DNA of 64,000 nucleotides from an uncultured delta proteobacterium (GCA_963843145.1 CAWJJC010000012.1:192622-256621); one strand, 5' to 3'. Shown: positions 5,174 through 57,305, numbered from the stretch's first letter. Notes: a model not told the origin generated them from the sequence alone. Numbers and translations are program-made.

Positions 5174-7585
5174 TTACAACATATCCACCGGATCCACATC
5201 CAGAATCAGTTGGACTCCGGAGCCCCTGAGGAACCGCTTGCTGTTTTCCAGAACCCAGGCGGAGACCTGATGCAGCATCCGGGGGTCTTTCCCTTTCAGT
5301 AAAATCTGCCAGCGGTACCGACCTTTGATTTTATTGATCGGAGCCGGTACCGGACCCAATAGCGTCAGGGAGGGGATCAGATTTCGTTTTTCTCTTTCCA
5401 GAGACAGCAGGATACCGATTTCCTGGGCCTTCTCTCGGACCCCCGTTTCCGGGTTGCCCTGAATAAGTATATGGACCAGCCGGGTGAAGGGGGGATATTC
5501 AAATTCACGGCGGAATTTGAGTTCCTGGCGGTAGAAACCCAGGTAATCGTGACGACGGACATATTCAAAGATATAATGATCGGGGTTATAGGTCTGGATG
5601 AATACCTTTCCCGGATAGGGGCCCCGTCCGGCCCGGCCGGCGACCTGGGCCAAGAGCTGGAAGGTCCGCTCCCCTGATCGGAAATCCGGCCAATTGAGGG
5701 ATAGATCGGCGCACAACACGCCGATCAGGGTTACTCCGGGGAAATCGTGCCCTTTGGTGATCATCTGGGTGCCGACCAGGATCTGGGTTTTTCGATCCTG
5801 AAAACGTTTGAGGATCTGGTAATGAGCATTTTTCTTGGACACCGTATCCCGGTCGAGTCGATCGATAACGGTTTCCGGGAAAAGCATTTTAAGTTCTTTT
5901 TCAACTTTTTCGGTGCCCCAGCCGATGGTTTTGATCCCCTCTCGCCCGCAGGCCGGGCAAAGAGGAAGCAAGGGCTGGTGAAAACCGCAGAGATGGCAGA
6001 GCAATTCCTGAGAAGCCGCGTGGAAGGTTAAGGAAACCGAACAGTTTCGGCAGCGGACCGGAGCTCCGCAGAGAGTGCATAAGGTCAGCGGTTCGAACCC
6101 CCGTCGGTTTAGGAAAAAGAGGATCTGGTGTCCCGCTTCCACCTGGGTCCTGACGGCTTCCAACAAAGGAGGCGACAGCGGCGTACCCTGACGCCCTTTT
6201 CTGAACTGCTTAAGATCGATCAGGCTGATCTCAGGCATGGCCCGCTGACGAACCCGACGGGTCAACGGGAGATAAGCCATTTTTTTCCGGTCTTGAAGGT
6301 GAAGGGTGGTCAGGGAAGGAGTGGCAGAACCCAAGACGGCTACTGCCTGGGCCAGTTGGGCCCGGACCAGGGCCAGATCCCGGGCATGGTATCTCAAGGA
6401 TTCCTGCTGTTTCAAGGAGGGATCATGCTCCTCGTCCACGACGATCAACCCCAGGGCTTCCAGGGGGGCAAAAATCGCGGATCGGGTCCCCACCACGATC
6501 GGGGTTTCCCCCACTTGGATGCGCCTCCATTGATCCAATCGTTCCCTGGGGGAAAGACCGCTGTGGAGGACGGCAATTTTTTCACCAAACCGGGTACGGA
6601 ACCGTCCTTCCATTTGGGGCACCAGACCGATTTCCGGTACCAGGATCAGGGCTTGACGGTTCCGGACCAGGGTATCCTCCGCCGCCCGCAAATAAACTTC
6701 CGTTTTCCCCGAACCGGTGACTCCGTGAAGAAGTAGAGACCGGTATTGCCCGTCGGACAGTGCCCGCTTTATTTTTTCCAGGGCCTGCTCCTGCTCAGCG
6801 GTCAAATCAACCGGCCTTTCTTCAACGCAAAAAATTTCCCCCAGCGGGTTTTGAATACAGGGTTGTTCCCGGATCTCCAGCAGGCCTTTCCGACACCATT
6901 GGTTTAGCCGCCGGGACGAAAGGGGGAAAAAAAGGCGCAAATCCGTTAAGGGCATTCCTTCCGGTCCTGGCAGAAAAGCATGGAGAGGCCGATCCTTTTC
7001 AGAAAAAGCCTCCTCCGAAAAACCGGGACCGGGATAGATCCATTTGATCTTTTTGGTGCGGGTCTTCTCTTTCGACAGGTCTTTTTTTCTGCTGATCAAA
7101 CCCTGGGCCTGCAACCGGGCGGCCAATTTTTTTTGTTCTACGTCCAACTTATCCCAGGGCCGCCTTTTTTGAGTAAGATCGTTCAGTAATTCCCGCTCCA
7201 GCCGGGACAATGGGACCGTTTTAAGGGTTTCCACGCCGCGGGGGGTGATTTCAATCACCTCCCGACTATTCACGGCCAGTCCAGGGGGCAGAGCCGCTTT
7301 GATCACCTGTCCCAGAGGGTGGTGGTAATATCGGGAAATCCAGCTTAAAAAGGCCCGCAGGGAGGGACTGAAAAAGGGTTGAGGGTCGAGGATCTGTTCG
7401 ATCATTTTTATGGATTGGTCGGGACCGGGGTCCGGGACCCGCTCCCAGAGATAACCGGTAACCCGTTGGTTCCGTAAGGGGACCAGGACCCGTTGCCCTA
7501 TTTCCGGAGGAATAGGGGAGGGCATTGGGAGTTGATAAACATAGGGCTGGTCTAAAGGTGGGATGACTACCTGGAAAAAAGACAT
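5174..7585 (-). CDS. priA: Primosomal protein N'
   Basis: GVTGSGKTEVY, DEEH, SATPS and CxxC zinc motifs, ILVGTQMITKGHDFP. Confidence 0.97.
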   Translation of the reverse strand: MSFFQVVIPPLDQPYVYQLPMPSPIPPEIGQRVLVPLRNQRVTGYLWERVPDPGPDQSIKMIEQILDPQPFFSPSLRAFLSWISRYYHHPLGQVIKAALPPGLAVNSREVIEITPRGVETLKTVPLSRLERELLNDLTQKRRPWDKLDVEQKKLAARLQAQGLISRKKDLSKEKTRTKKIKWIYPGPGFSEEAFSEKDRPLHAFLPGPEGMPLTDLRLFFPLSSRRLNQWCRKGLLEIREQPCIQNPLGEIFCVEERPVDLTAEQEQALEKIKRALSDGQYRSLLLHGVTGSGKTEVYLRAAEDTLVRNRQALILVPEIGLVPQMEGRFRTRFGEKIAVLHSGLSPRERLDQWRRIQVGETPIVVGTRSAIFAPLEALGLIVVDEEHDPSLKQQESLRYHARDLALVRAQLAQAVAVLGSATPSLTTLHLQDRKKMAYLPLTRRVRQRAMPEISLIDLKQFRKGRQGTPLSPPLLEAVRTQVEAGHQILFFLNRRGFEPLTLCTLCGAPVRCRNCSVSLTFHAASQELLCHLCGFHQPLLPLCPACGREGIKTIGWGTEKVEKELKMLFPETVIDRLDRDTVSKKNAHYQILKRFQDRKTQILVGTQMITKGHDFPGVTLIGVLCADLSLNWPDFRSGERTFQLLAQVAGRAGRGPYPGKVFIQTYNPDHYIFEYVRRHDYLGFYRQELKFRREFEYPPFTRLVHILIQGNPETGVREKAQEIGILLSLEREKRNLIPSLTLLGPVPAPINKIKGRYRWQILLKGKDPRMLHQVSAWVLENSKRFLRGSGVQLILDVDPVDML

Positions 7586-15005: not shown

Positions 15006-16340
15006 TTAATTGGCAGCCAAAGCTTGATAGGTCATAAATTCATCCCCGGGGCCAAAGGCCAGTTCGTTAACGATGGAGGCCAGCTTGCAGGTTGCTCCGG
15101 TTCCGGTGATGGTGGCCGATCCCACATAGGTAGAAGGCCAGCTCGCCCCGGTCTGGAGGAAGGTATTGGAGGAGCTCGGGGTCAGGCCGGGAAAGCTTTC
15201 GTTGGTAGGAGTGAAACTCCCCGCCAGATTAGGGCCATAGGTAACGGCGATGTCACAATTCCCGGTCCCCACGTTTTGAACCTGGATGCCGGTAAAGAAC
15301 CCGCTGTTATGGGCCATCACCAGAGGGGCGACTACACTGGTCCCAGCGGCTGTAGGGTCAAACCCTTCATAGGCCGTACCCTGCCCCACCAAACTGAGCT
15401 GGTTGACAATAGCCACTAAGTTTTGGGAAGCGGAATTGGTGATGGTCGCCCCGCCCACGTAAGTGGAAGCCCACTGTCCATTGAGTTGGAGCTTGGTGCA
15501 GGATTGTCCGACGGCTAAAGCAAGGCAGGTGTCGGCGGTGGGGGCTAAAGACCCCGCGGTGTTGGCCCCATAAGTAATGGTCACGTCCGTGGGGGCGGAA
15601 CCGACATTCATAACCTGGATACCGCTGAAGAAGCCGGAGTTCTTAGCCATCACCAGGGGAGCCGTAATGGTTTGGGAGCCGGCGCCGAAACTGTTATACC
15701 CCAGCAGGGCCTTGGTACTCCCGGTGCCGACCTGCATCACCGTAGCTACTATGGGTTGACTGCCCGTGCTGGTCACAACAGCCGATCCGACAAAAGGGGA
15801 CGGCAACGCGGCGTTGGTGGCCTGATCGAAGGTCTTGGACGCTCCGGGAAGGATGGTGAACGGACCTTCGGTTGTTCCGTTACTATAAGTCGCGGTAACA
15901 TCCGTGCTGGCCGTCCCCGTGTTTTGAACGTTATACCAGGTGTCGAATCCCGAGTTTCCTTTCATCAGCAAGGGCAGGTTGATACTGCTGGCCCCTGAAG
16001 AAAAGCCGGTGGTGGAAGCAAAATAGATCCCGTCGCCTACGGTATTGACGATGGCCACGACCTGCTGGTCGGACTCGATGATCACGGAACCATTAAAACC
16101 GGAAGGAGCATCGATGGGATAGTAGGTTTTTGAACTATTGGCCGGAATGGTGTCCGTTGGACTGTTCACCACAGTTCCAGCCTGGTCGATGTACTTAATT
16201 TGGATGTTAGCGGTCGTGGCGCTCAAATTCTGAACCTGAAAGCCTGAAGAATAAGTAAGTGCGTTAACCGGATTGCCCATCGACAACAATACGAATACTC
16301 CCAAGAAAACGATGGCTGAAATTTGGCTGACTCTTTTCAT
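15006..16340 (-). CDS. Secreted Ser/Thr/Gly-rich protein with four internal repeats (putative cell-surface protein)
   Basis: Signal peptide ending VNA; four units starting SGFQVQNL, TWYNVQNTG, SGIQVMNVG and TGIQVQNVG; RBS AGGAG. Confidence 0.8.
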   Translation of the reverse strand: MKRVSQISAIVFLGVFVLLSMGNPVNALTYSSGFQVQNLSATTANIQIKYIDQAGTVVNSPTDTIPANSSKTYYPIDAPSGFNGSVIIESDQQVVAIVNTVGDGIYFASTTGFSSGASSINLPLLMKGNSGFDTWYNVQNTGTASTDVTATYSNGTTEGPFTILPGASKTFDQATNAALPSPFVGSAVVTSTGSQPIVATVMQVGTGSTKALLGYNSFGAGSQTITAPLVMAKNSGFFSGIQVMNVGSAPTDVTITYGANTAGSLAPTADTCLALAVGQSCTKLQLNGQWASTYVGGATITNSASQNLVAIVNQLSLVGQGTAYEGFDPTAAGTSVVAPLVMAHNSGFFTGIQVQNVGTGNCDIAVTYGPNLAGSFTPTNESFPGLTPSSSNTFLQTGASWPSTYVGSATITGTGATCKLASIVNELAFGPGDEFMTYQALAAN

Positions 16341-53984: not shown

Positions 53985-54083
53985 TGCGGTGAATGACGGT
54001 CATATTCAACGCAATAGATGCGGAGAATGTTCTTGTTTTTGCGGTGAATAATCGGCAAAATATCCGCAAGGAGTGCGAAGAAT
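53985..54083 (+). promoter_or_regulatory. Repeated operator array upstream of fic
   Basis: TGCG(G/A)(T/A)GAAT at 53985, 54019, 54040 and 54074; two of them pair with inverted half-sites across a 5-nt spacer. Confidence 0.65.
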
Positions 54084-54084
54084 T

Positions 54085-55197
54085 ATGGACTATATCCACG
54101 ATAAGAAGAATTGGCCAAAACTGACTTGGAGTCCGGAGCGGCTTGCAGGGCAGCTTGCCGGCGTACGTCATCGCCAGGGACGGCTAATCGGGCGCATGGA
54201 GGGGTTGGGTTTTTCGCTCCGCAACGAAGCCGTACTACAAATCTTGACTGAGGATGTTCTCAAATCCAGTGAAATCGAAGGTGAAAAGCTGGATAGGGAC
54301 CAGGTGCGATCTTCTATCGCCCGCCGGTTGGGTCTTGATTTCGGCGGACTTTCACCGGTTGATCGGCATGTCGAGGGCGTTGTTGAAATAATGCTCGACG
54401 CCACCGAGCATTATGCCGATCCGTTGACTGAAGAACGTCTATTTGCCTGGCACTCCGCTCTGTTCCCAACTGGGCGCAGTGGTATGAAGAAAATCGTTGT
54501 GGGCGGCTGGCGTGACGACAAATCCGATCCCATGCAAGTGGTTTCCGGCCCAATGGGCCGGGAGAAGATGCATTATCGAGCTCCCGAGGCTAAGCGGGTT
54601 CCCGAGGAAATGCGAGCTTTCCTGAAATGGTTTAACGGACCCGAATCTGCCGATCCGGTTCTAAAGGCAGGTCTGGCGCATCTTTGGTTTGTGACGATCC
54701 ATCCTTTTGAGGACGGTAACGGCCGGATGGCTCGGGCGATTGCCGATAGGACGCTCGCGCTTTCGGAAAAGAGCAGCCAGCGTTTTTATAGTATGTCGGC
54801 GCAAATTCGTCTGGAGCGAAAGGTCTACTATAACCTGCTGGAAAAAACCCAGAAAGGCGACCTGGATATAACCCCCTGGTTGGAATGGTTCTTGGGCTGC
54901 CTGGATCGCGCCATTGACGGCGCAGAACATATCCTGGCCGGCATCTTCCTCAAGGCCCATTTCTGGGAAGCTCATACCCACAAGCCGTTCAATGAACGCC
55001 AGCGAGCTATCATCAACCGGCTATTCGACGGTTTTGAAGGAAAGCTGACTTCTTCCAAATGGGCCAAGTTGGCCAAATGCTCGCAGGATACCGCCCTCAG
55101 GGATATCGGCGATCTGGTGAAGCGTGGCGTTCTTTTGAAAGAGTCCGGCGGCGGTCGCAGCACGAGTTATGCCTTGACAGACCGATGGGCAAGGTGA
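54085..55197 (+). CDS. Fic-domain protein (DUF4172-Fic-wHTH)
   Basis: SSEIEGE, HPFEDGNGRMAR, C-terminal SQDTALRDI..GGRSTSY. Confidence 0.93.
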   Translation: MDYIHDKKNWPKLTWSPERLAGQLAGVRHRQGRLIGRMEGLGFSLRNEAVLQILTEDVLKSSEIEGEKLDRDQVRSSIARRLGLDFGGLSPVDRHVEGVVEIMLDATEHYADPLTEERLFAWHSALFPTGRSGMKKIVVGGWRDDKSDPMQVVSGPMGREKMHYRAPEAKRVPEEMRAFLKWFNGPESADPVLKAGLAHLWFVTIHPFEDGNGRMARAIADRTLALSEKSSQRFYSMSAQIRLERKVYYNLLEKTQKGDLDITPWLEWFLGCLDRAIDGAEHILAGIFLKAHFWEAHTHKPFNERQRAIINRLFDGFEGKLTSSKWAKLAKCSQDTALRDIGDLVKRGVLLKESGGGRSTSYALTDRWAR

Positions 55198-55245: not shown

Positions 55246-55319
55246 TCCCTAAATTCGCTATTCTTCCTGGATGGCTAATTCTTCACTTGACTGGATGGAT
55301 GTAGGATATCCCGGATTAC
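55246..55319 (+). repeat. Diverged copy of the IS110 right end plus flank
   Basis: Aligns without gaps to 57189-57262, 60/74 identical by hand count. Confidence 0.8.
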
Positions 55320-55448
55320 CCTTTCCTCCAGACGGCACAGGAAGTCCTCCCGGTCTTTCTGCTTTCGAAAGATTTTGGTTCTCTCTATCCCGCGGGTCAT
55401 GACATGGTGCAGAACCCCCGGAGCGTCTAATCGTGCTTGTCTAGGCAT
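55320..55448 (-). pseudogene. N-terminal fragment of a RAYT/IS200-like HUH tyrosine transposase
   Basis: MPRQARLDAPGVLHHVMTRGIERTKIFRKQKDREDFLCRL, truncated before the HUH motif. Confidence 0.8.
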
Positions 55449-55642
55449 ATGCAAAATTTATTACATTTTCTCCGGGTCTGTCAACGCAATCTAGAACCAA
55501 CGTTATATATTCCCAGAATTTGGAATAGGCTCCCGAGCCTGCGCCAGAAAAAAAATTCATATAATCTTCCCAAATAAAAAACCTCCTGTTAAGAGAAAAA
55601 GTAAGCATCACCAAACTTCAACTCTTAAACAGGAGGTGTTCA

Positions 55643-56923
55643 ATGAACGAAGAAGAGGATACCAGGCTCAAGGAATTCCGTCAACTCAAGAAAGAGATCC
55701 GGGGATCGAAGGACCATTTGATCGTCGGGATCGACGTAGCCAAGGAAAAGCACCATGCCTTCTTGGGCACGGCTACCGGGAAGACGCTTTTCAGGCGATT
55801 GGTCTTTGACAATACCATCGAGGGATTTGAGAAGCTGCTGACTCAGGTCAGGGCCATCCAGGTGGCCCAGGGTCTGCCGAAGGCGGTCTTTGGTTTGGAA
55901 CCCACGGCCAACTACCACAAGCCGCTGGGAGAGCATTTGATTAAATGCGGCCGGATGGTGGTCTTGGTTTCCGGGGTAGCGGTCAAGCGCAACCGGGAGC
56001 TTTTGGACGGGCGCTGGGACAAACACGATAGCAAAGACGCGGCCAATATCGCCGACCTGATCTCCCAGGGAAAATGCCTGTACTACGAGTACCCGGAGAT
56101 AGGGCTCCGGGATCTGCGCACGCTGCTGTCGCTGAAGAAGAAGCTGAAGAAACAGGAGCACAGCTATCGGGTGCGTATTCGGAACCACCTCTTAGCGCAG
56201 TATTTCCCCGAATTGGATCGTTTTAGTGGGCGGCCAGAGGTGGAAGCGATTGTCCGCTGGTGCTTGGATACTTCCGAACTGGCCGGTTTGGAGTTCGCTC
56301 AATTCGTCCAACGGGTAGTGCCCGGGCGAAAGACCCTGGCCCAGCACCAGCGCTTAAAGACCATCCAGCAACTGGCCATCGACTCCATCGGTTGCGAGAT
56401 GGGGGAAGGGGCCCACTTCGAGGCCGAGGTGATGGTGGACGGGTTGCGGCAACTCCGGGAGACCATTAAGACGACCGACGAGCGGATCCGGGAGACGTGC
56501 CGCCAGTTTCCGGAATATGGGTATCTGCTGACCATCCCCGGCTTTGGCCCGGACGTTTCGGCCAAGGTGATCGGCGCCCTGGGTAATCCCTTCCGTTTTC
56601 AAAACCGGAAGCAGGTACTCAAGATGGCCGGCTTGGATCTGGGCGCCGAGCGGAGCGGGAAACCCTCGGATACGGTGATCCCGGTCATTTCCAAAAAAGG
56701 AAAAGCCGATCTGCGCTATGCCTTATACCAGGCAGCCTTCATCGCCTCCACCCGTTATCGGCCTTGGATCGAAAAATACACCGATCAATTGCAGGAGCGG
56801 GCCAAAGAACCCGGGATCAGAACCAAACGGTGGGTCAAGCTGTCGGCCAAGTTCTTGATCATCGCTTGGACGATCATGAAGAAAAAGGAGCCCTATAACC
56901 CGCGATATCTGAATCCGGAGTAA
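55643..56923 (+). CDS. IS110-family transposase/recombinase
   Basis: DEDD residues (GIDVAK, LEPT, KHDSKDA), TIPGFG, ERSG serine, LRYALYQAA. Confidence 0.96.
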   Translation: MNEEEDTRLKEFRQLKKEIRGSKDHLIVGIDVAKEKHHAFLGTATGKTLFRRLVFDNTIEGFEKLLTQVRAIQVAQGLPKAVFGLEPTANYHKPLGEHLIKCGRMVVLVSGVAVKRNRELLDGRWDKHDSKDAANIADLISQGKCLYYEYPEIGLRDLRTLLSLKKKLKKQEHSYRVRIRNHLLAQYFPELDRFSGRPEVEAIVRWCLDTSELAGLEFAQFVQRVVPGRKTLAQHQRLKTIQQLAIDSIGCEMGEGAHFEAEVMVDGLRQLRETIKTTDERIRETCRQFPEYGYLLTIPGFGPDVSAKVIGALGNPFRFQNRKQVLKMAGLDLGAERSGKPSDTVIPVISKKGKADLRYALYQAAFIASTRYRPWIEKYTDQLQERAKEPGIRTKRWVKLSAKFLIIAWTIMKKKEPYNPRYLNPE

Positions 56924-56944
56924 GCAGAAAACTCATAATTCCCT

Positions 56945-57100
56945 TTAGCGAGCCCGGGCACCAACGTGGAGGCCTTCTAAGGACCTCGGGAGGGACAATC
57001 AGGGCCGCTCACTAAACTTTAAAACCTGGATAAGGGATGATGGGTGCCTGTCTCAGACGGGATGCCGGATATTGATAACGCTGAGGTTTAGAGTTTGCGG
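56945..57100 (+). ncRNA. Putative bridge/seek RNA of the IS110 element
   Basis: Two stem-internal loop-hairpin modules. Loop 1 carries ACCAACGT and GGGAC matching the target; loop 2 carries GGATG and ATAAC matching the circle junction. Confidence 0.7.
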
Positions 57101-57305
57101 TTGGTGGGCACTGGGGAAGCTTTATGAATCACGTCTGTCCGTCAGGCGAACAGGGGAGATATGTCCAAAAAAGAGCCCAAATCCTATCTCCCTATATTCA
57201 CTATTTTTCTTGGATGGCTACTTTTTCTCTTGACCGGTTGGTTATAGGATGTCCCCTATTACGTCCTCTATTATCAAATTGGACAGGAAGGTTGAGAAGG
57301 TAAAA

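Follow-up and report, generated by a model that had tools for sequence, protein, structure and literature searches.

How an insertion sequence comes to lie in one particular repeat, and whether it carries the means of finding that repeat within itself, is the question raised by an IS110-family element in a 64,000-nucleotide stretch of DNA from an uncultured delta proteobacterium (GCA_963843145.1, CAWJJC010000012.1:192622-256621). The whole stretch is referred to here as the window and is numbered from its first letter. A preliminary description, made from the sequence alone, had read the element as a complete RNA-guided recombinase unit with a GT core and a guide encoded at its 3' end, comprising target and donor loops. 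Tests at the sequence level support that description, and 55504-57252 is, with a probability of roughly 0.9, an IS110-family insertion sequence that would move by bridge-RNA-guided recombination. The features on which this reading is built are collected in Table 1.

The extent of the element was defined by comparisons within and beyond the source genome (5.35 Mb in 32 contigs), which contains three full-length copies displaying 100, 97 and 94% DNA identity over bases 1-1749. All three retain an intact frame of 426 codons, with protein identities of 97-100%, and they share a flank of ~20 nt on the left and ~11 nt on the right. Three empty sites were also identified in this genome (C15:56446+, C12:96475+ and C12:95430-), in which the left half, a single GT and the right half are contiguous. 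A same-family search covered 21 genomes, ten of which provided a match, and yielded nine further elements. Across 12 same-family elements, flank similarity ends directly outside GT/TATATA on the left and GATGT/CCC on the right, and the edges are further supported by ~140 related elements elsewhere. Because the empty sites lack the element and the flanks of the relatives diverge, the shared flank represents a repeated target rather than element sequence; a longer element, as the common flanks might have suggested, was ruled out on the same grounds. GT is present at both junctions and only once in the empty sites, revealing insertion without target duplication, and the same holds for the relatives. 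By convention, the left GT was assigned to the target and the right GT to the element, so that the left and right ends measure 139 and 329 nt, respectively. The boundaries given in the preliminary description coincide exactly with those of the three copies and with the three contiguous empty sites that its proposed search returned, and its coordinates proved correct throughout, including those of both RNA modules, the first with its stem at 56948-56955 / 57002-57008, and of the short matches.

The recombinase displays the two domains typical of the family (Pfam DEDD_Tnp_IS110, E 4.1e-24; Transposase_20, E 1.2e-16) and scores 161.7 bits against NCBIfam NF033542, "IS110 family RNA-guided transposase", for which the cut-off is 140. 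Protein alignment to structure chains revealed IS621 (PDB code 8wt6; E 2.6e-13) and ISCro4 (E 8e-12) as the only solved relatives, the similarity to IS621 being remote. The IS621 recombinase comprises 326 residues, with 328 in the solved chain, as opposed to the 426 residues predicted here; ~75 extra residues lie between aligned blocks, where residues 167-274 of the query correspond to residues 142-175 of IS621. Alignment with IS621 identifies D31, E86, D129, D132 and S338-G339 as the catalytic equivalents, and all of these are invariant in 12 relatives of 69-91% identity. The catalytic residues of IS621 are those reported by Hiraizumi 2024 (PMC11208158), while the region between the blocks is described as variable, and as long in the IS110-proper subgroup, by Siddiquee 2024 (bioRxiv 10.1101/2024.04.26.591405). 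The open reading frame, its IS110 domains and the matched catalytic residues agree with the long recombinase initially proposed. At E <=1e-20 the protein family comprises 5364 proteins among 8000 scored candidates, mostly unnamed metagenome proteins. Placement of the clade by tblastn against a plasmid collection was abandoned, as all 1305 records (1305/1305) were below 31% identity and the only named elements, ISBth13-like and ISEsa2-like, were too distant for a subgroup to be assigned.

Behind the gene, and on the same strand, lies a conserved RNA structure of ~150 nt consisting of two modules, each with a stem, an internal loop and a hairpin. Comparative folding of ten relatives with RNAalifold, a check that the preliminary description had proposed, recovered both modules with simple internal loops. 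A covariance model of 38 pairs, in which the loops were left open, located the module downstream of the gene and on the gene's strand in 88 of 92 sources (six of which are duplicates of the same places) and in 79 of 80 metagenome loci; in the matched loci it was found downstream of the gene only. Three of the four sources lacking the module (L057, L086 and L087) end at the end of the gene and the fourth, L074, has downstream sequence that gave no match, while the sole metagenome miss ends 51 nt past the gene. Among 62 distinct rows, 91.5% of the cells pair and 21 of the 38 pairs carry changes on both sides. None of 500 shuffles reached any of these measures, and sliding the partner by 1-3 columns reduced pairing to 26-48%. 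The donor module is as conserved as the target module, and 17 of the 24 pairs in its two helices show compensatory changes. Many pairs alternate between G-C, A-U and G-U, and the frequent G-U pairs fit an RNA made from the plus strand. In the source genome, with 150 of 3565 first-look candidates scored, the model matched only the three element copies. Rfam returned no family for the region up to E 10, the six matches listed being noise.

Two further observations concern the surroundings of the modules. A scan for promoters and terminators detected no promoter-like site before the RNA module and no terminator-like site after it. A box resembling a -10 element, CATAAT, is located at window positions 56934-56939, ~8 nt upstream of the first stem, and an A/T-rich hexamer is kept there in close relatives; this box may be a promoter of the RNA's own, although the scan made no call at that position. 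Between 57100 and 57200, a further conserved block contains GTGAGCACTGGGGA, a small hairpin at ~57131-57150 and a run of six A residues. It is common to relatives down to 76% identity and may belong to a longer RNA.

The loop sequences of the first module relate directly to the site in which the element resides. In the window, the 5' strand of the target loop (ACCAACGT) is identical to the left target plus the GT core and can pair with the bottom strand, while the 3' strand (GGGAC) is complementary to GT plus the right target and can pair with the top strand. With 8 nt matched by the left guide and 5 nt by the right one, ~11 bp are specified (ACCAAC-GT-CCC). That the guides match the element's own insertion site, as initially claimed, could therefore be read directly from the sequence; whether they track the flanks was addressed with ends that had been set independently of the guides. 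A left end was defined as a GT with TATAT directly after it, lying at the distance expected before the gene, and a right end by a -35-like box plus a TATAG.AT(T)GT tail. The 82 non-duplicate loci provided 73 left and 77 right ends, with 69 elements complete. Over eight positions preceding the core, left guides and left flanks presented 6.00 matches versus 3.28 after shuffling (sd 0.20; 0/10000 permutations; 56 unique pairs out of 69), and when a single pair per guide was retained (n = 35) the values were 6.20 versus 3.55 (0/10000). Agreement per position ranged from 0.71 to 0.91 at the six or seven core-proximal positions and was lower beyond, which indicates a left guide of ~7 nt plus core. 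Right guides, compared over seven positions, displayed 4.47 matches versus 3.09 (sd 0.15; 0/10000; 57 unique pairs out of 74), with agreements per position of 0.98, 0.98, 0.91, 0.58, 0.51, 0.39 and 0.12, pointing to 3-5 nt plus core. In all, 35 left and 19 right guide variants are tracked by the flanks. An independent metagenome set gave the same outcome on the left (6.10 versus 4.43; sd 0.17; 0/10000) and on the right (4.20 versus 3.66; sd 0.09; 0/10000), and the covariation of loops and flanks on which the preliminary description had made its claim depend is present in both data sets. Individual elements with differing guides reside in matching sites, including L099 with 10 matching nt, L056/L059 with 10-11 nt, and L076, whose left and right guides match over 8 and 9 nt, respectively; right-side matches span 7-9 nt in L069/L111 and 7 nt in L040.

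One Nitrospirota genome (L099-L110, L094-L098) carries ~17 copies that fall into several guide classes. Classes ending in GTTGT and CTAGT often sit in flanks bearing the pre-core base of the other class, which suggests tolerance, or cross-use of RNAs, at the pre-core position.

The second module bears an analogous relation to the ends of the element itself. On the 5' side of the donor loop the sequence matches that of the right end (GGAT+G), and on the 3' side it is the complement of GT and of the bases that open the left end. Both short matches to the predicted circle junction, GGATG and ATAAC, lie where the preliminary description had placed them, and the left guide tracks the right end: its variable base is concordant in 74 of 77 pairs and in all 64 of the metagenome set (64/64). 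Most elements carry G at this position. A Nitrospirota clade carries T, L090 carries A, and L065 shares C with four metagenome loci; a form longer by one base, GGATT, is present in both guide and right end. The right donor guide reads ATAAC or GTAAC and could pair with GT and the TAT of the invariant left end, GTAAC by way of a G:T wobble. The nucleotide immediately past the right donor guide varies with the pre-core base of the target: with C it is G (60/60), and with A (15) or T (6) it is U; the metagenome set comprises 76 G/C combinations and one U/A. In IS621, a handshake guide of the donor loop pairs with the target at the corresponding position after strand exchange (Hiraizumi 2024, PMC11208158). 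By the same reasoning, the invariant A that follows the right target guide could pair with the invariant pre-core T of the donor.

When right and left ends are joined, TTGACx and TATATx are brought together across 17-18 nt in 68 of 69 complete elements and in all 60 of the metagenome set (60/60), and in the window the two boxes are separated by 17 nt. The joined ends are thereby predicted to create a promoter of the sigma-70 type pointing into the recombinase gene and the RNA. At L041, ~1438 nt upstream of its RNA, the sequence that abuts the left end is the right end of another copy, with one GT between the two; this is a tandem of copies in head-to-tail orientation or else a circle junction captured in the assembly.

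By analogy with IS621, the element would be excised as a circle, whose junction promoter would raise the expression of recombinase and RNA. A recombinase tetramer would then hold the RNA, which would bridge the circle junction and the target site, and S338 would cleave after the GT core, strand exchange leading to insertion without target duplication. Transcription, the RNA ends, recombinase binding, circle formation and recombination are all steps that we infer for this element from the published system.

Several results weigh against this interpretation. The three copies of the source genome are 3-6% apart in DNA, which leaves recent movement in that genome unsupported. A number of elements (L019, L021, L139 and others) present 1-3 mismatches between flank and left guide. 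The donor guides are short (~5 nt each, core included), left-donor pairs are discordant in three of the 77 (L015, L081 and L110), and the donor covariation reflects few independent events, perhaps four or five lineages. Pairing of the right donor guide is plausible from complementarity without covariation, since the left end is invariant. The fold of the single sequence is no better than that of shuffled sequences (z = 0.37 when the whole right end is folded, -1.21 for the module), and the structure consequently rests on comparative data. Finally, the metatranscriptome contigs of two runs belong to relatives with a likeness of 90-99%. They span the gene as well as 56964-57093 and stop before 57159; these contigs come from RNA libraries that possibly hold DNA, and their coverage also mirrors sequence conservation. 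Two apparent skips in one of the runs had short sides and were disregarded.

Three other explanations have to be weighed against the proposed one. The most resilient accepts the mechanism for the family and holds that the copy in the window is a fossil unable to move. The divergence of the three copies, none of which is identical to another, points in this direction, as does a decayed right-end remnant 185 nt upstream. Against it, 3/3 copies keep the full 426-residue frame at the protein identities given above, the two RNA modules are intact, as are the ends and the junction promoter, and the copy's own flanks are still matched by a left guide of 8 nt and a right guide of 5 nt. A fossil is on this evidence unlikely, if still deserving of real weight.

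A second explanation restricts guidance to the first module, which would act as a target finder resembling a seekRNA, while the second would serve as a scaffold, structural or protein-binding, whose matches to the ends are incidental; the ends would then be recognized through the flanking target halves or by protein. The brevity of the donor guides, the lack of covariation between right donor guide and left end, and the three discordant left-donor pairs are all compatible with a scaffold, and short seekRNAs with target matches alone have been reported to co-purify with the transposase (Siddiquee 2024, bioRxiv 10.1101/2024.04.26.591405). An incidental match would, by contrast, hardly account for a left-donor position at which all four bases occur and change together with the right end, for the longer GGATT variant being altered in both places, or for the base after the right donor guide following the target base as the handshake model of IS621 predicts. 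The second module is, moreover, as conserved as the first and rich in compensatory changes. A purely structural role of the donor module is accordingly quite improbable.

A role for the 3' structure in the DNA itself, or as a stability or terminator element of the 3'-untranslated region (3'-UTR), with the likeness to the flanks being an old, carried copy of the target, is hardly credible: the lack of called promoter- and terminator-like sites around the module and the unremarkable single-sequence fold would suit it, but a carried copy would not track new flanks across 35 left and 19 right variants in two independent sets, the frequent G-U pairs show selection on one RNA strand, and a sense left half and antisense right half placed around a hairpin constitute the published bridge-RNA layout (Durrant 2024, PMC11208160).

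Table 1. Position of the element, its gene, RNA modules and half-sites in the window, and of the Y1 units elsewhere in the source genome.
Feature	Position	Strand	Description
Left target half	55484..55503	+	~20-nt repeat common to all three copies
Left target	55496-55501		ACCAAC
Target core	55502-55503		GT
Insertion sequence	55504..57252	+	1749 bp; defined by three copies with the same ends, three empty sites and relatives
Left end	55504..55642	+	139 nt
Predicted -10 box of junction promoter	55504-55509		TATATA; contains right donor half
Recombinase gene	55643..56923	+	426 aa; DEDD_Tnp_IS110 and Transposase_20
Target-binding module	56947..57009	+	closing stem 56947-56955 / 57002-57009
Left target guide	56960-56967		ACCAACGT
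Inner hairpin, target module	56969-56987		
Right target guide	56992-56996		GGGAC, then invariant AAT
Donor-binding module	57015..57095	+	closing stem 57015-57029 / 57081-57095
Left donor guide	57035-57039		GGATG
Inner hairpin, donor module	~57042-57068		
Right donor guide	57075-57079		ATAAC
Handshake-like base	57080		G
Right end, remainder	57096..57252	+	
Predicted -35 box of junction promoter	57230-57235		TTGACC, then 17-nt spacer
Left donor half and core	57247-57252		GGATGT
Right target half	57253..57264	+	
Right target	57253-57255		CCC
Y1 unit	L002:445-1446	-	source genome, C15, between the two other element copies
Y1 unit	C12:95430-96494		~1.05 kb, bounded by inverted target repeats
Y1 unit	C15:55401-56477		~1.05 kb, bounded by inverted target repeats

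The bridge-RNA element proposed here shares with the IS110 family its domains, catalytic residues, dinucleotide core and two-loop RNA and, at the sequence level, the junction promoter. Likeness to IS621 (Durrant 2024, PMC11208160; Hiraizumi 2024, PMC11208158) extends to the DEDD RuvC-like domain and the Tnp domain with its catalytic Ser-Gly, and to the order of the RNA, in which a target-binding module precedes a donor-binding one and each forms a simple internal loop around a hairpin. The pairing is also the same: 8-9 nt of the 5' strand, core included, are directed to the bottom strand, and 4-7 nt of the 3' strand to the top strand. Further common features are a dinucleotide core shared by all four pairings, insertion without target duplication, the circle-junction promoter, the handshake position after the right guides and a target of ~11 bp. 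The two differ in that the RNA of IS621 resides in the left end before the gene, while here it is located in the right end behind it, and in the core, which is CT in IS621 and GT here. The natural target is also unlike that of IS621, being a repeat at the ends of Y1-transposase units. With respect to the group to which IS621 belongs, two simple internal loops, the guide lengths and strand order and a 4-nt TATA terminal repeat are all present, and the departure is the bridge RNA, which in that group lies upstream of the gene in the left end.

Location of the guide RNA downstream of the gene is instead a property of the IS1111 group (ISEc11, ISPa11 and ISKpn4; Siddiquee 2024, bioRxiv 10.1101/2024.04.26.591405; Durrant 2024), which also uses repeated targets such as REP sequences and the terminal repeats of mobile elements, in common with the repeat target observed here. 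Other properties of that group contrast with those of the present element. IS1111 elements have subterminal inverted repeats of 7-17 bp, whereas the longest exact inverted repeat between the 40-nt ends measures 4-8 nt here, most commonly TATA, and is shorter than 7 nt in 53 of 59 distinct elements. Their transposases comprise 330-350 residues, as against 426, and in their seekRNA the top-strand match lies 5' of the bottom-strand match, an order that is reversed here to that of the IS110 type. Donor-binding bases are often found in a multi-loop in IS1111 elements (Durrant 2024, PMC11208160), in contrast to the simple internal loop of the present RNA. ISPpu9 of Pseudomonas putida (PMC12288879), likewise of the IS110 family, resides in repetitive extragenic sequences, and its transposase gene is followed by a gene for a small RNA. 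It is set apart, by its description, through additional free-standing copies of the small RNA gene, whereas in the source genome, with 150 of 3565 first-look candidates scored, the module described here was confined to the three element copies.

The element therefore combines IS110-type guide order and simple loops, without long subterminal repeats, with an RNA at the 3' end, and this mixture is its distinctive property; combination of IS110-type and IS1111-type features has been anticipated in print, where a group of IS110-type elements with a 3' non-coding region is mentioned, to which the clade may correspond. The suggestion of a potentially new programmable system is overstated, as mechanism and architecture alike had been described for IS621 (Durrant 2024; Hiraizumi 2024) and, by Siddiquee 2024, for seekRNA elements, and the protein family already bears the name "IS110 family RNA-guided transposase" in NCBIfam. 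The element represents a new subfamily member of the bridge-RNA elements, not a new system. No description of the clade was found in the accessible portions of the bridge RNA, IS110 and IS1111 literature, although the per-element supplementary tables of Durrant 2024 may list ISfinder members, and preprint 10.1101/2024.06.21.599552 provided no statement on RNA location by clade.

The preferred target in the source genome is a repeat of ~30 bp that forms the inverted ends of ~1-kb units, each built around an IS200-like Y1_Tnp gene of 333 codons (PF01797), so that target sites occur as inverted pairs ~1045 bp apart. The left half-site is found nine times in the source genome at <=3 mismatches: the element occupies three of these occurrences and another three are vacant, two run into other sequence, and one is unrelated. 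At the two followed by other sequence, C15:55401(-) and C5:81875(+), no right end was found. Two of the element copies flank one Y1 unit, with their left ends facing inward. Among the relatives, a Y1 homolog is present in 11 of 72 left flanks and in none of 76 right flanks. The units may themselves be mobile. Insertion into repeats, or into the ends of other mobile elements, is known for the IS110 family (Durrant 2024, PMC11208160; ISPpu9, PMC12288879). A promoter-like site for the Y1 gene lies immediately left of the half-site (window 55484-55455, minus strand).

Traces of other copies were also observed. At window 55246-55319 (+), 185 nt upstream of the intact copy, a second right-end remnant of 74 nt (81% identity) contains its own -35-like box and is followed by CCCGGATTAC, which resembles the right half-site. 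The remnant adjoins a Y1_Tnp gene (55310-55449, minus strand) reduced to about its first 46 codons, and together they are the trace of an older insertion or deletion beside the intact copy. Short element-like fragments of 70-92% identity occur elsewhere in the source genome at C27:2724-2772, 5910-5946 and 15587-15712, at C5:95858-95926 and at C10:194085-194126; those on C27 are right-end pieces, one of them followed by a right half-site. These fragments are either copies that have decayed or solo ends. Window 54073-55197 (+), immediately before the truncated Y1 gene, encodes a Fic/DOC-family protein of 374 residues with an N-terminal DUF4172.

Variation in content was noted among the relatives. 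At L084:2895-3866 (+), a passenger open reading frame of 323 codons, with Toprim_2 and DUF3991 domains, is inserted between the recombinase gene and the bridge RNA, and long forms of the element (2826-2872 bp) also occur at L068, L089 and L082; a cargo gene is unusual within an IS110-family element. An IS630-like element (L050:252-1500; HTH and DDE_3 in two frames) is nested in the left end of another relative, before the recombinase gene.

For its host genome the element described here is ordinary, amounting to three insertion-sequence copies that landed in the end repeats of another small mobile unit. For the family its implications are broader. The clade is abundant in metagenomes of Desulfobacterota and Nitrospirota, and we tentatively consider, as a possibility that falls short of even odds, that it constitutes a third architectural type, in which an IS621-style RNA with handshake is placed at the right end behind a long recombinase, a single transcript issues from the junction promoter, and the RNA is a processed 3' UTR. 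If so, the RNA would have moved between the ends independently of, or as an intermediate to, the split between IS110 and IS1111, and the clade would provide a natural bridge system that is compact, comes from a single transcript and uses a GT core. Location of the RNA at the left or right end and the feature sets of IS110 and IS1111 are, in any case, not strictly coupled, a point of relevance to the divergence of the two groups. A well-delimited subfamily is added to the repertoire of bridge recombinases, with evidence of natural reprogramming in at least 35 left and at least 19 right guide variants, and its exact ends, core, guide lengths and covariance model are what is required to choose an orthologue for a recombination assay.

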